64,000 nucleotides of DNA from contig OZ241917.1 of the NCBI GenBank assembly GCA_965203805.1, forward strand, positions 1,888,001 through 1,952,000, given 5' to 3'. The translations under genes were made by a program, and so were the position numbers. Below the pieces are notes generated by a model. That model made no database searches. It worked only from the letters and a program-made list of their open reading frames with translations, and was not told the origin of the DNA. Below, piece by piece: positions 12,738-40,139 of the stretch; position 1 is the stretch's first letter, and each line of letters opens with the position of its first letter. Origin of the DNA: Candidatus Latescibacterota bacterium (GTDB lineage: Bacteria; Latescibacterota; UBA2968; GCA-2709665).

Positions 12738-15700
12738 TCAGGCTGAGCGGATACGCAAATAGGCTCGAGGAATCATACAAATGGGTACCACGATAACCAG
12801 CAGAGCCGATGAGACAACCAGCCCTCCGGACGTACCTATCGCGAGGGTGTACCATATTTCGGACCGATCGCCATGCAGCATTAGCGGGAGAAAACCCGCA
12901 ACGGTGGTCAGTGTTGTGATAAAGATCGGTCGCAACCGCTGGAATGCGGCCCGGACAACAGCGTCAATGGGAGACGACGGTCTCGCCTTCAATGTACGAG
13001 AAATATTATGGACCAGCAGAATGGCGTTGTTCACTGAAATGCCCATCAGAAGCAATAGGGAGGCGTAACCGCCCTTGTTAAAGGACGCACCGAACAGGTA
13101 AATCCCAGCTCCGACCCCGATGAGGGCCAGCGGCAATGCAATCAATACGAGGATCGGCCGCGTCCATGACTCGAACAGAGCAGACGTGATCATCCACACA
13201 AGTAGCACTGAAAGCAATACAATGAAAACCAGTTCCTTTTTTCCGTCTTCGGTAAGGTCCCTCCGCATATAACCCTTGTTCAGGCTGTAACCGTAAGGCA
13301 AGTCCGTTTTTGCTATCAGATCTTCAACTAACTTTTCGGAATAGTTGAAGTCTGCAAGGACGGTAAAACCAACCTCTTTGACGTAGCGCTGGTTGTCGCG
13401 TTCGATTGTCGGCCTCGCATACTGCTTTTCCAGATGGCTGATGTGGCCGATCCGCGCGGCGTATCCCTCCAGCAAAACATGCCTAAGTTGACGGAGGTCC
13501 GTGCCGCCCTCCGCTTTCGCCGAGATGGCTGCCGGTACTTCCCGTCCGTCCAATGACATGCGCTGAATGGAAGAACCCTCATCCAGGCGGGCTTGTATTT
13601 CATCCACAACCATGGCGTGATCAACACCCAAGGGGGAGGTTCTCGTATGGTCAATCCGTGCCAGAATTTCATACCTTGGCGGACCGTAAGTGCGGTCGAC
13701 CTGAATGTCGCGTACTCTCCGCGATCGGCGCTCCTTCAAGCGCTCTGCAATTCCTTCCGCAATATCTCCCACATTCCGCAGGTTGTAGCCCTGTACCTCC
13801 AGTTGTCTGTTCACGCCACTAGCGCCCAGAGGCTTACCCGCCGGATCAATGTCCTGGCCCCATACACGGAATCCCACGCCGCCGATATTGCCGCCATAAA
13901 CGACCAAGTGTTCATAAAGCAAATAGGGAATGGCCGACCGTTTATATTCATCCTTCAGCCGGATCTGAATGAGTCCGTACCTCCCCGAACTCTGTGTGAT
14001 GATGCCACTGATGACGGAGGAGAAACTGAGAAGCTGCTTCTCGATCCCCTTAAAGATCCCATCCAGCCGACTGATGTGCGCATTGAAGGGCATCTCAAGA
14101 AACACGATGAGGGAGAATCCTTCCGCAATTTCCCTCATGATATGCCTGTGCGGCGCTCCGTCAACCCGGTGGTCTACGTCTTTGAACAGATAGTAGGTTG
14201 CGCCCCCGAGAATCAGATTCAGAGTTGGTCTCAGGAATAAGGCTGTTGGATTGCCCCAGACGTTGTTGTAGAGTCGTGCGGACCCTTCCGAAAGACGTCT
14301 CCACGGCGAGCGAGGTGTTTGTTCTTGTTCGTCTGTCACGCGGCTGTAATTGTCTGATGCGGCCATTGTGTCCCTGCTGGCGAGCCAATCTGTGTATTCC
14401 TGCCGCGTCGCGACCATTCCGGTTGATGCGTACTCATTTGGCCGATTCGCTTGGCGCTGGCCGACTTGCTCCGGGAGGAGCCAAATTGGAAAGCCCACCA
14501 TCCATGCCAAGAGTGCCAGTATCAATACCCTTTGTCGGCCACACATGCCCAGGGTCCGCTGATATAGACGAAACATCGGATCAACGCTCCGAACAGCAGA
14601 TTCCTGCTGGAGCACCGACCGGTAGAAAAACGTGGGAATCAGGACCAGTGCAATTAGGAGGGAAAGCAGGAGGGTTAAACCTAATGATACAACAAGAGGT
14701 TTGAAATACTGCTGCAGGTCTTCCGATAGAAAGAGAACCGGCAAAAAAGCGCCAATGGTCGTCAGATTCGAAGCCGCGACCGGGTACATAACTCCGCGCA
14801 ACCCTTGAGCCACTGCCTGTTTCAAGTTGACGTCGGTAGCACGCTCGTCTGCGCTACGCCGGACGTAATCGTATACGACAATAGCATTGTCTACACAAAC
14901 CCCGAAACCGATGGTAAAACCAGCCAATGTCACCAGGTTCAGGTGCAAACCAAACAAAAAAAACAGGCTCAGGGCCCCAAGTACGGACAATAGGACAGAA
15001 GCAAGAATCAGGATCACAGAATGAAAGCGCCTGAATACCCCCGCCAACACCAGACATATGAGCAACATAGAGACGGCTGAACGTCGGAGCAGGAACCGCA
15101 GCTCCGCATGTATTTCGGCGCCTGCGTCATTTAGTACGATGATCTCGATACCATCCGGCATTTGCCCGGACAAATCAGAGATCTTTTCCCGAACCCGCCC
15201 GGAGGTGCGAATCATATCGCTTCCGTGCGCTCGCTCAATCCGGACGGCCACTGCGTTTCGTCCATTAATTCGGAACACGGATTCGGGATCACGGTGCCGG
15301 TACCGCACATCGGCCACGTCGCCCAGCGGGATGGCACGGGCCATTCCGGCGCCCGGCAGAGGAATCCGTCTGATCTCATCCAAGTTCTCAAAACCGCTCT
15401 TCAACTGGATGCGGCTAATGGCCCCGTGCGTCTCTGTCGCGTCTAAGGAACGAGTTTGCATTCCTCGGGCGGCCAAGGCGACCCTCAACCGATTCATATC
15501 AATACCTCTGCTCCGAGCAAGGTCCTGATCCAACTCGATCATGACGCCTCGTTCGCCTCCGCCCTGTACCGAGACGGCTCTGACCCCGGGGATAGCCAAC
15601 AGCGGCAGACGAACCCGCTCTCGAACCAGGCTCCGCAGTTCCGAGGCATCCGCTTGACCGTGTACAAAGCAGACGAAAAAATCCCTTAATTCTCTGCGAA

Positions 15701-38200: not shown

Positions 38201-40139
38201 AACGTCCACTCGGTTCTTGCAAATCTTCCAAATGGCCCAGGTTGACGTTCGTATCCAGCTTCTCTAGTAAATCCAGTTCATCCTTGCACCAGACCTCTGA
38301 AATCAGCTCGAACGAAAACGCACCGCGAAAGATCGAGGCATATTCCAGCACCTGCCGTTGGGACGACTGCAGCCGTCCCAGACGCAACTCGATTGCCTGC
38401 ATAATGCCCGTGGGCATCGGCCATTCGGTTGACTTCGGCCAATTCCAATTGCCTGCCGAATCCTTCCAGATTGAGCCGTCCGCAATAGCTCCTCGAACCA
38501 TTTCTACGATAAACAGTGGATTTCCCCCAGTTTCCAGGAAGACCCTCCGAGCTTCTTCCTCGGAGACCACCTGCTCTCCAAGCAGGGACGCAGCCAGACA
38601 CCCAGTTTCGTCCATACGGAGAGGCTGGAGATGAAAATGTACAATTCGAGTTCCATCTGACCCATTTGTCAGGTCGTCGATTCCCGGGGGTAGCGGATCT
38701 TCGTCCACAGTGCGGCAGGCGAGCCCGAAGATGAGAGGTGCGGGATCAGGATTTCTCCTCGTAAAGTCAAGGAACCGCAGGGTCAAGTCATCGGCCCACT
38801 GCAGGTCTTCAATGCATACAAGGGTGGGCGCTTCCCGGCTCAGATCGACGAGCAGTTCCGACAAAGTCTCCATCGCCGGGTACGGATCCGGCTGATCGGC
38901 GGGCACCGGACGTTCGATTTGCGTTAGAACCCGCCTGACGGATGCTTCGAGGTCCGAACCTCTAATGTCGGGCAGTTCCGCCATATCCCTCAGCATTTCA
39001 AGAAATGGACCAAAGGCTTGGCCGCCGCTCTCATAACAACGTCCTGTTTGTACGCGCATCCCGTTAACGCGGGCGTCGGCCTTAAATTCTTCGAGAACTT
39101 GCGTCTTCCCGATGCCAGCACTCCCGCTAACGAGAATCATGTGCCCAATACACTCGCGAGTATCCTGCAGGATCTTCCACAGAGCCTTCATCTCTTGTTG
39201 CCGACCCTGGAACTGGGGTTGCAAAAATGGAACGTCCGTGGTACCCAAGACAGGCAGCATTGTGACGGTAGCTTCGTCGCAGTATTCATGGAATCCGCTT
39301 GCCTCGTTAATCGTCAAATCATAGAGCAAGCTCCCAACCGAACTGTACCGGTCAATCGGCTCCTTCTTGAGAAGCTTCATTACTGACTCTTCGATTCCCG
39401 AGGAATTTTCGCCGGCAACAAGGTGCGGAGGACAAGGTAATTCTTGCAAATGCTTAGTCAATATTGTCGCCGGATCTGTTCCCGTGAACGGTGGATTCCC
39501 GGAGAGAATCTCGTAAAGAATGACTCCCAATGAATAAAGGTCGGATCGCTGGTCAACTCCCCGGCCCCGAATCTGTTCGGGAGACATGTACTCCAAGGTC
39601 CCCGTAGCTGCTTCCGGAGGCTGCAGGCGTTCATCCGCAGCATCTTTAAATCGCGCCAGACCCAAGTCCAGAATCGTAACCTCGGGTTGGCCGTCATTTT
39701 CTGAAATAATGATATTGGAGGGTTTAAGATCTTTGTGTATTACACCAAGTTCATGGATGTATGCAAGCCCCTCACCAGTCTGCCGGACAAACGGAACGAG
39801 CCACGCGGATTTTAGTTTCCCGCGGTATTCTGCGCTTGAAATCAGGTCAGACAGTGGATGACCCTGGACATAATCCATCGAAAAATACGGTCTCCCGTCG
39901 TGAAGGCCCCACCTGCGTGAAACTACAATTCGAGGATGTCGGATCCGAGACAGGATATCAAACTCCCTCAGAAATCGCCTTTGCGCCACTTCCCCAGAGA
40001 TATTCAACACCTTAAGCGCTACAATGGAGTCTTCCCGGACGTCCCGCGCGCGATATACGATTCCTATACCTCCGTTTCCGACCGTATCCAGGATCTTGTA
40101 TCGTCCGTCGACAACCATTCCAGTCTCTATTTCGGCCAT
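35253..40139 (-). CDS. Hybrid Ser/Thr kinase - AAA ATPase - TPR - GAF - sigma54 activator - Fis HTH
   Basis: Kinase [32 protein letters not shown]; second P-loop GSAGIGKT with CIEDLQWAD; TPRs; GAF ([16 protein letters not shown]); [45 protein letters not shown]-terminal HTH. Confidence 0.93.

Follow-up and report, generated by a model that had tools for sequence, protein, structure and literature searches.

A Candidatus Latescibacterota peptide gene cluster read as two adjoining maturation modules

A 64,000-nucleotide stretch of DNA from a Candidatus Latescibacterota bacterium (the window) contains, at positions 12738-40139, a gene cluster of the type that forms peptides made on ribosomes and modified after translation (RiPPs). 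The region is read here, with a probability of roughly 55%, as two conserved and separable peptide-maturation modules that now lie side by side. Module A includes a giant regulator of the sigma54-activator type, a small open reading frame (ORF) for a putative precursor peptide (pre1) and a radical S-adenosylmethionine (rSAM) enzyme with a SPASM domain. Module B is represented by a second putative precursor (pre2), by a fusion of a subtilisin-type S8 protease with a DUF1611/TIGR04066 domain, and by a separate acyl carrier protein (ACP), together with genes for export and for periplasmic proteins. Judging by sequence, each module appears to possess its own new precursor peptide family. An earlier note on this DNA had claimed two unrelated precursors in one indivisible system. 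Both precursor families are conserved, and the regulator-pre1-rSAM and pre2/S8-fusion/ACP sets are inherited separately, so the claim of indivisibility is not supported.

The rSAM search covered 41 genomes of the same order, from which 16 neighbourhoods were extracted. A scan of species representatives gave 39 loci, with rSAM proteins 47-96% identical, in metagenome-assembled genomes (MAGs) labelled Latescibacterota, Gemmatimonadota or Poribacteria; beyond these loci the next rSAM matches show about 30% identity and belong to Caldisericota and others. In all 16 neighbourhoods and in 36 of the 39 representative loci (two of the three misses are cuts at contig ends) the gene directly upstream of the rSAM gene encodes a homologue of the giant regulator, and a pre1-like ORF is situated between the two genes in at least 35 of the 39, a 36th sequence having come from locus L083. 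Regulator, pre1 and rSAM are therefore a fixed unit. Two subtypes of module A can be distinguished: the first, which includes the window's type, has a gene for a family 2 glycosyltransferase (GT2) upstream of the regulator (14/39 loci), and the second has another, short sigma54 activator downstream of the rSAM gene (13/39 loci). The regulator-pre1-rSAM triad is present in two or three copies per genome, and the window genome itself holds a second copy with an rSAM protein 61% identical to the first.

In pre1 the leader is built around an I/V-N-G/A motif. A single invariant Cys comes next and is separated by some six variable residues from a Pro-rich motif, which is followed by an acidic tail in the sister family. 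N13, C37 and P48 are invariant across 36 aligned homologues, and the copies differ chiefly in the residues directly after the Cys. No Pfam or NCBIfam family was found for pre1. A search of 1.84 billion representative proteins with the pre1 profile gave 21 matches, namely 20 small proteins (47-121 aa), of which the 14 that were read are of the same kind, and one repeat protein. The latter (P0133, 642 aa, Cys-rich), which we take to resemble an animal SRCR-repeat protein, is matched by the leader profile at the start of each repeat, five times; this is probably a chance short motif.

The second precursor, pre2, has in the window a conserved leader ending in IYAYE and a hypervariable core with three Cys. 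ORFs of the same type, with leaders ending in IY(A/G)YE and unalignable cores containing 2-5 Cys, are found between redoxin and propeller genes in L012 and L013 (same genus) and in L024, L045 and L053 (sister family; two copies in L053), and L083 holds one further ORF. These sequences are 21-28% identical to the window's pre2, nearly all of it in the leader, and no Pfam or NCBIfam family covers pre2. Leaders of this type are confined to loci in which redoxin and propeller genes are present as well; in the other subtypes of S8-fusion locus a single candidate was noticed, in L016, and none elsewhere. Both small ORFs thus extend beyond chance, as had been claimed: pre1 is retained in at least 35 of 39 related loci, and pre2 has homologues in five other loci.

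The separability of the modules is seen in their distribution. Among 16 S8-fusion loci from relatives, the ATP-binding cassette (ABC) exporter is present in 15 and the rSAM gene in one, and this sole rSAM-holding locus belongs to genome G002, which is 96-99% identical to the window. Genome G001 has the rSAM gene with only generic S8 matches and no fusion. The fusion occurs without an rSAM gene at E <= 1e-20 in G006, G007, G013, G016, G019, G020, G023, G024, G026 and G034. The pre2-type module is located on a different contig from the rSAM gene in G010 and G025 and hundreds of kb away from it in G039. A fusion lies within 10 kb of the rSAM gene in only 3 of the 39 module-A loci.

Table 1. Features of the cluster and of its flank beyond the regulator gene, in window coordinates
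Feature	Position	Strand	Basis or remark
Membrane fusion protein (MFP) and two resistance-nodulation-division (RND) subunits	19256-20488; 16109-19252, 12738-16106	-	HlyD_D23; ACR_tran (AcrB-type)
Terminator-like hairpin before MFP-RND genes	20771-20806
BtrH-like protein (BtrH_N + DUF4872, C39-like), putative carrier-protein-dependent acyltransferase	20867-21874	-	Pfam
Kelch-repeat lipoprotein-like gene	22647-23780	-	Kelch families (Pfam); between ACP and BtrH-like gene
ACP with DSI phosphopantetheine-site motif	24394-24657	-	PP-binding 45.7 bits; overlaps end of fusion gene
S8-DUF1611/TIGR04066 fusion, 638 aa	24645-26561	-	QhpE-like S8 domain, residues 1-236; two-domain P-loop module, residues 266-630
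Rhodanese with N-terminal membrane segment	26673-27164	-	Pfam Rhodanese 64.7 bits
Intergenic repeat of ~190 nt, copy 2	27194-27372		Upstream of rhodanese gene
ABC exporter, half-size, MsbA/HlyB-like	27386-29068	-	ABC_membrane from residue 16, then ABC_tran; without C39 peptidase domain
Redoxin, membrane-anchored, thioredoxin-fold, CQPC	29108-29800	-	AhpC-TSA 23.3 bits, cut-off 26
pre2, 73 aa	30913-31134	-	ORF with AGGGAGG ribosome-binding site, between propeller and redoxin
Intergenic repeat of ~190 nt, copy 1	31203-31385		Upstream of pre2; direct-repeat families D1, D3
Propeller, secreted, 6-bladed, DUF5128/TolB-like	31448-32671	-	Pfam DUF5128 37.6 bits; N-terminal signal-like segment
rSAM/SPASM enzyme	33159-34631	-	Radical_SAM, Fer4_12, SPASM domains; N-terminal RRE-like domain
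pre1, 71 aa	34658-34873	-	ORF with AAGGAGG ribosome-binding site, between regulator and rSAM
Sigma54-type -24/-12 promoter, GG-N10-GC	34972-34986	-	GGTACGTGGTTTGCA; ~100 nt upstream of pre1
Terminator-like hairpin and T-run after regulator gene	35001-35022	-	8-bp stem, 5 GC pairs, TTTTTTGTTT tail; consensus scan only
Regulator, 1628 aa	35253-40139	-	Pkinase (Ser/Thr kinase), AAA_16 (STAND), TPR, GAF, Sigma54_activat (AAA+), HTH_8 (Fis-type) (Pfam/NCBIfam)
Broken SBP_bac_5 solute-binding gene	40648-41541	-	Two ORF fragments, both match SBP_bac_5
GT2 glycosyltransferase	41769-42785	-	Pfam Glycos_transf_2, 119.5 bits

According to the ORF calls, every long ORF of 12738-40139 is on the minus strand, and all 13 elements of the gene run named in the earlier note were found there in the order claimed (Pfam/NCBIfam matches and ORFs); within the run the list had overlooked one gene, that of the Kelch lipoprotein. 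It also lacked the transposase relic and the 470-bp indel of the pre2-redoxin spacer, and the GT2 and broken SBP_bac_5 genes upstream of the regulator.

The rSAM protein, which likely starts at the ATG at 34631, is a peptide maturase rather than a sulfatase maturase, as had been proposed. Its NCBIfam scores are 247 bits for SCIFF, 244 for nif11, 239 for PapB and 228 for QhpD, all below cut-off and the last aligned end to end, against 151 for CcpM (TIGR04068) and 104 for the anaerobic sulfatase maturase model anSME. In a sequence search against solved structures the best agreement was with 5wgg (E 5.5e-58 over residues 20-440; anSME 1.7e-19), which we take to be CteB, although the PDB entry bears no title beyond 'Radical SAM domain protein'. 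Ten homologues share an invariant CxxxCxxC motif and eight more invariant Cys. The N-terminal 110 residues match PqqD weakly, and a RiPP recognition element (RRE) is probable there. Because of the family scores, the 5wgg match, the invariant Cys and the weak PqqD match, the protein is assigned, on sequence grounds, to a putative new subfamily of thioether-forming peptide maturases. It could bind the conserved pre1 leader via the RRE-like domain and join the invariant Cys to a residue further downstream by a single thioether-type crosslink, so that a ring encloses the Pro-rich segment, as would be expected from family membership. Downstream of module A in G010, a distant second rSAM gene (26% identity) is accompanied by a small ORF ending in a Cys/Ser-rich repeat (L042, 15187-15408), possibly another RiPP cluster.

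Expression of pre1 and the rSAM gene could be switched on by the neighbouring kinase-STAND-TPR-GAF-sigma54 activator, whose Sigma54_activat domain scores 229.7 bits, acting at the sigma54-type promoter in front of pre1. This site was spotted by reading the spacer and then matched with the consensus minus its first T; the pattern has 3 matches in the window against 0.78 expected by chance, and an equivalent motif is present upstream in 34 of the 39 related loci. The strict consensus (TGGYAY-N5-TTGCW) has no match in the window, and a scan allowing two mismatches gave 21 matches against 24.9 expected, no better than chance. Control of the whole cluster by the kinase-sigma54 regulator had been claimed earlier. 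The promoter before pre1 bears this out for module A; consensus scans and spacer reading found none before the module-B genes of the window, so that control is indicated only for pre1 and the rSAM gene, where the GG/GC spacing and a nearby enhancer-binding protein occur together. A sigma54-like site at 31215, the sole candidate upstream of pre2, was rejected on its GG-N11-GC spacing. In G025, by comparison, module B comes with a consensus sigma54 promoter and a response regulator of its own.

In module B, the arrangement claimed earlier, an S8 domain fused to a TIGR04066-like domain and followed by an ACP and a BtrH-like protein, is present. The S8 part is best described by the QhpE model (143 bits, cut-off 165), and the C-terminal half matches TIGR04066. 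The S8 triad (D19, H58, S202) and the GxxxxGK loop (G421-K428) are invariant in 14 fusion homologues. In the AlphaFold model (mean predicted local distance difference test score, pLDDT, 78.5) the N-terminal half superposes on subtilisins, and the C-terminal half, placed on the DUF1611 protein 2g0t_B with a template modelling (TM) score of 0.70 on the target, is confirmed as a DUF1611 fold at the level of the predicted structure. A sequence search of this half against solved structures gave chance DapB matches only. In the Atlas it is placed beside clusters of stand-alone TIGR04066 and DUF1611 proteins, most of them from Bacillota.

The fusion family is large: at least 491 clusters at E <= 1e-10 were counted among 8000 candidates scored, and the best 120 of them bear few names, all generic ('S8 family serine peptidase'). 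Full-length homologues 30-66% identical are found in many relatives, up to nine per genome. A selenocysteine or stop readthrough suspected from a TGA flagged inside several of the relatives' fusions was dismissed, the TGA being the normal C-terminal stop on translation. The ACP gene adjoins the fusion in 13 of the 16 S8-fusion loci of relatives. In its other subtypes the fusion is accompanied by genes for MauE/DoxX, AhpC/TSA redoxin, Yip1 and glycosyltransferase proteins.

The BtrH-like protein exceeds both Pfam cut-offs (BtrH_N 46.8 bits, cut-off 29.7; DUF4872 37.8, cut-off 28) and scores 32 on the DarH equivalog, with a cut-off of 300; a sequence search against solved structures gave nothing. 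Its gene adjoins the S8 fusion in G006, G007, G018 and G019, while in G010 it is found past the RND genes at a distance of about 4 kb. A 339-aa ORF beside the ACP gene in L016 was considered as a hidden BtrH-like protein and not shown to be one (BLASTP E 1.1). The fusion, the ACP and the BtrH-like protein lack signal peptides. Speculatively and by analogy, a carrier-bound acyl group may be added or moved by the BtrH-like enzyme acting together with the ACP and the P-loop (DUF1611/TIGR04066) domain of the fusion.

Some module-B versions have further neighbours. A UDP-glucose/GDP-mannose dehydrogenase gene precedes the ACP-fusion pair in L045 (6511-9019), L053 (970-2340) and L083 (12614-15126), with a DUF354 gene before the pair in L045 and L083 and a likely sulfotransferase gene in L053. 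In L016, a GT28-like gene follows the ACP gene. These neighbours hint at sugar chemistry in those versions.

The two modules could also be parts of one integrated system, in which the single rSAM enzyme crosslinks both pre1 and pre2, and both products would be processed and exported by the S8 fusion, the ACP, the BtrH-like enzyme, the ABC exporter and the RND pump under the kinase-sigma54 regulator; this is rather unlikely. Module A and a pre2-type module B are adjacent in the window and the G002 lineage, and they also form tight co-directional arrays in G035 (L045) and L083 and stand 13 kb apart in G027, in gene orders that differ from the window's. Some coupling is therefore plausible, since the two lie together in two lineages in different orders. 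All nine genomes with the pre2 subtype (G000, G002, G010, G025, G027, G028, G032, G035, G039) also hold an rSAM gene, a count that overstates independence because the nine genomes are kin. The sole sigma54 promoter detected in G035 and in L083 precedes pre1, at the head of a single long co-directional array. The pre2 cores are rich in Cys beside Asp/Glu, like the substrates of Cys-to-Asp/Glu thioether enzymes, and an Ile-x-x-Tyr motif lies about 20 residues into both leaders, where a subtilisin-type protease might use it as P4/P1.

On the other hand, the leaders of pre1 and pre2 are unrelated, and a 487-nt gap separates the rSAM gene from the propeller gene in the window. Module A is mostly alone, as the counts given above indicate, with no fusion at all in G001. 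Pre2-type modules stand apart from any rSAM gene in G010, G025 and G039, the one in G025 with its own promoter and response regulator. On balance two modules are preferred, which here are probably used together, for instance through shared induction, processing or export, although neither requires the other to exist.

Several points weigh against this preferred interpretation. The repeated A-B adjacency in two lineages argues that the modules are less independent than the words 'two modules' imply, and the promoter-headed array of G035 and L083 would fit a single operon. No sigma54 site was found for the module-B genes of the window. Only one Cys is conserved in pre1, and the two genera share no conserved acceptor; known ranthipeptides contain several Cys. 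The RRE is weak (PqqD match with E 0.021, 0.0018 for a homologue, below cut-off). The BtrH-like gene was found in none of the 19 fusion-carrying genomes of the sister family and thus does not belong to the core. No enzyme able to load the ACP was identified in the cluster; polyketide synthase or fatty acid synthase (PKS/FAS) genes, an adenylating enzyme and an ATP-grasp loader are all absent from it. Thioether formation, the point of cleavage and possible acylation are all inferred.

Maturation in module B could parallel the cytoplasm-to-periplasm route known from quinohemoprotein amine dehydrogenase (QHNDH). The cytoplasmic QhpE-like S8 domain would cut off the conserved pre2 leader, probably after IYAY, and the peptidase-less ABC exporter would transfer the peptide to the periplasm. 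There, the anchored CxxC redoxin and the rhodanese could act on the cysteines of the exported peptide, as knowledge of these families suggests, the secreted propeller may bind it, and the MFP-RND pump could take it past the outer membrane. N-terminal hydrophobic segments are present in the propeller, the redoxin, the rhodanese and the Kelch proteins. Propeller homologues adjoin pre2 in L013, L024, L045 and L053, redoxin homologues occur in the same four loci and rhodanese homologues in L024 and L053; the ABC exporter copies of other module-B loci are 44-56% identical. An MFP-RND-RND set also follows the ACP gene in G010.

The same features could be explained differently: rather than a free natural product, module B would mature a small Cys-rich subunit of the periplasm that forms an assembly with the propeller, much as the QHNDH gamma subunit or the small methylamine dehydrogenase subunit does in its enzyme. 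QhpE is the best model of the S8 domain (143 bits), and the QhpD model (228 bits) covers the rSAM protein from end to end. The ABC exporter lacks a peptidase domain, the gene of a secreted propeller adjoins the peptide gene, and MauE/DoxX genes occur in related S8-fusion clusters; the QHNDH route, as outlined in part of PMC7876137, would be the precedent. A catalytic subunit, however, is not expected to have cores that are unalignable within a genus, as those of pre2 are (21-28% identity, nearly all in the leader). The cluster has no gene for a heme subunit or a flavin monooxygenase, the QhpE and QhpD scores are below cut-off, and the propeller is of the DUF5128 type, not a known dehydrogenase subunit. 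Such a subunit is very improbable.

Repeats, relics, an indel and a probable insertion are found inside the cluster. The Kelch gene is bracketed by 62-nt direct repeats (22569-22630 and 23811-23872, 84% identical), is present in G002 and absent from the G010 locus, and is probably a later cassette insertion. The two copies of the intergenic element of about 190 nt are 75-76% identical; the element could be a promoter, an operator or an RNA element. A different conserved stem-loop is located just before the ribosome-binding site upstream of pre2 in the sister family. In the pre2-redoxin spacer, a 470-bp segment (29884-30353) is missing from the otherwise 96-99% identical G002; it was rejected as a mobile element, being single-copy in the genome. 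A 38-aa ORF with a Cys-rich end (29797-29913) spans the edge of this indel and had no NCBIfam match at E <= 1. The same spacer holds a relic of a Mutator transposase (30664-30846, plus strand), with 13 of 21 residues identical to the transposase at 10920-11369 (E 1e-5 for the pair) and no Pfam match.

These remnants could suggest that the small ORFs are not both true substrates, that one of them, or the 38-aa ORF, arose by chance or decayed, and that the cluster is partly degenerating. Insertion sequence (IS) fragments lie beside the cluster, and the transposase relic, the broken SBP gene, the Kelch cassette and the 470-bp indel lie within it; the 38-aa ORF, its 5' part at the indel edge, is 82% identical in G002, where its neighbours are 99-100% identical. 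From genus to genus, however, pre1 and pre2 retain the same position and frame, their ribosome-binding sites and their leader motifs. None of the enzyme genes is broken, and the catalytic residues checked in the S8 fusion and the rSAM enzyme are invariant. Decay is scarcely credible as an explanation, and two modules remain the preferred reading.

The window belongs to a 5.87-Mb single-contig genome. Its close relatives were deposited as Candidatus Latescibacterota MAGs, a few of them under other phylum labels, and relatives of the genome occur in runs labelled sponge metagenome (X9, X10). The GC content is 0.45-0.49 over 20-36 kb and about 0.60-0.64 over 46-64 kb, and the low-GC stretch holding both modules is bordered by IS elements. 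Mutator-family and DDE transposase genes or fragments were identified by Pfam in the downstream flank. The low GC content of the cluster and the nearby transposase genes suggest an acquired island. Just downstream of the RND genes lie a DDE transposase gene (6749-8128) and a Mutator-family transposase split into two overlapping frames (10920-11821). On the other flank, the SBP_bac_5 gene, broken in the window, is intact (633 aa) at the equivalent position in L040, the genome's second module-A copy.

Two novel functions could be considered jointly, although the pair is quite unlikely: self-contained signalling circuits based on pre1, and a carrier-dependent modification by the S8-DUF1611 fusion and the ACP. 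In the former, crosslinked pre1 could be the ligand of its own kinase-sigma54 activator, recognized by the STAND/TPR or the GAF part. In the latter, the fusion and the ACP, here with the BtrH-like protein, could perform an undescribed carrier-protein-dependent step, for example an acylation, coupled to leader removal.

Three things in the locus are uncharacterised: a single-Cys pre1 family, in an uncultured phylum, that goes together with a CteB-like rSAM enzyme and with a kinase-STAND-sigma54 regulator of very large size; the pre2 family with its fixed leader and hypervariable Cys core; and a large protein family that fuses a leader-type S8 protease to a DUF1611/TIGR04066 domain. No published study of pre1, pre2 or the S8 fusion was found, supplements being outside the search, and the literature on DUF1611 and DgcN yielded nothing relevant. 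For Latescibacterota, the sections of PMC12993501 concerned give only tallies of antiSMASH 'ranthipeptide' and 'RRE' clusters. The role of TIGR04066 and the ACP in clostridial systems is likewise unsettled; the one paper found on the point, PMC10731318, offers 'immunity' as a guess only. Solving the TIGR04066/ACP pair would explain many clusters at once, and the locus is an entry point both to this chemistry and to the regulator-peptide-rSAM triad.

Among known systems, the clostridial CLI_3235/CcpM system was the one with which the locus had been identified earlier, as its diderm version. The two are alike in that a peptide cluster combines a TIGR04066/DUF1611-type protein and a small carrier protein with an rSAM enzyme, an S8 protease and an ABC exporter. 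Three of the four marker families fail, however, and the fourth is homologous but below cut-off. TIGR04068 scores 151.2 bits against a cut-off of 500, in two stretches of the rSAM protein, for which four other rSAM families score higher. The ACP reaches 13.5 bits against 70 on TIGR04069 (E 0.5, the genome's best) and matches ordinary ACP models. TIGR04066 gives 105.1 bits against 200 on the C-terminal half of the fusion. TIGR04065 has no match at E <= 1 for pre1, pre2 or the 38-aa ORF, and its best match in the genome is elsewhere (E 0.26). The fusion-ACP pair of the relatives, moreover, mostly occurs without any rSAM gene. The Paenibacillus SacP23 cluster, which encodes TIGR04068, TIGR04066 and TIGR04069 proteins, has the S8 protease as a separate gene in the part of PMC10731318 that describes it, whereas here the protease is fused to the TIGR04066-like domain. 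The fusion supports a functional tie between the two.

BtrH of butirosin biosynthesis performs carrier-protein-dependent acyl transfer. The similarity to BtrH systems consists in a BtrH_N/DUF4872 gene near a free-standing ACP gene, here inside a peptide cluster, and it would, by analogy, be a reasonable guess that an acyl group bound to the carrier is passed on to an amine or a hydroxyl. To our knowledge, no RiPP uses a BtrH-type enzyme; a literature search on this combination gave one genome-survey preprint. A dialkylresorcinol cluster has a BtrH-like gene listed beside an ACP gene (in the gene list of PMC3949708), and in goadvionin RiPP lipopeptides a GNAT enzyme uses acyl-ACP (as stated in a section of PMC8784127).

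The SCIFF/ranthipeptide systems (CteB, PapB) are similar to module A in the top rSAM family matches, in the 5wgg alignment over residues 20-440 and in the precursor immediately upstream of the rSAM gene; pre1 occupies this place in at least 35 of 39 loci and has a conserved leader, and an RRE is weakly detected. The differences are that the rSAM protein is below the equivalog cut-offs (SCIFF 425, PapB 340), that pre1 has one conserved Cys rather than several and belongs to no known precursor family, and that a giant kinase-STAND-sigma54 regulator is the constant partner here.

QHNDH maturation, with QhpC as the precursor, follows a QhpD-QhpE-QhpF logic (rSAM enzyme, S8 protease, ABC exporter), in which the S8 protease removes the leader in the cytoplasm before ABC export (PMC7876137, in the part that deals with this route). 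The locus shares with it an rSAM-SPASM enzyme that is cytoplasmic and belongs to the Cys-thioether type, a compact cytoplasmic leader-removing subtilisin, a peptidase-less ABC exporter and a propeller gene nearby. It differs in its scores (QhpE 143 against a cut-off of 165, QhpD 228 against 453) and has no QhpA, QhpB or QhpG and no heme, dehydrogenase or monooxygenase genes among the cluster ORFs. Here the S8 domain has a DUF1611-type domain as its fusion partner and an ACP at its side, the cores of the peptides are hypervariable, and the rSAM enzyme travels with pre1 while the protease travels with pre2. By analogy, the closest description of how the locus would work is a blend of two pathways, a ranthipeptide-type rSAM pathway and the Qhp route from cytoplasm to periplasm.

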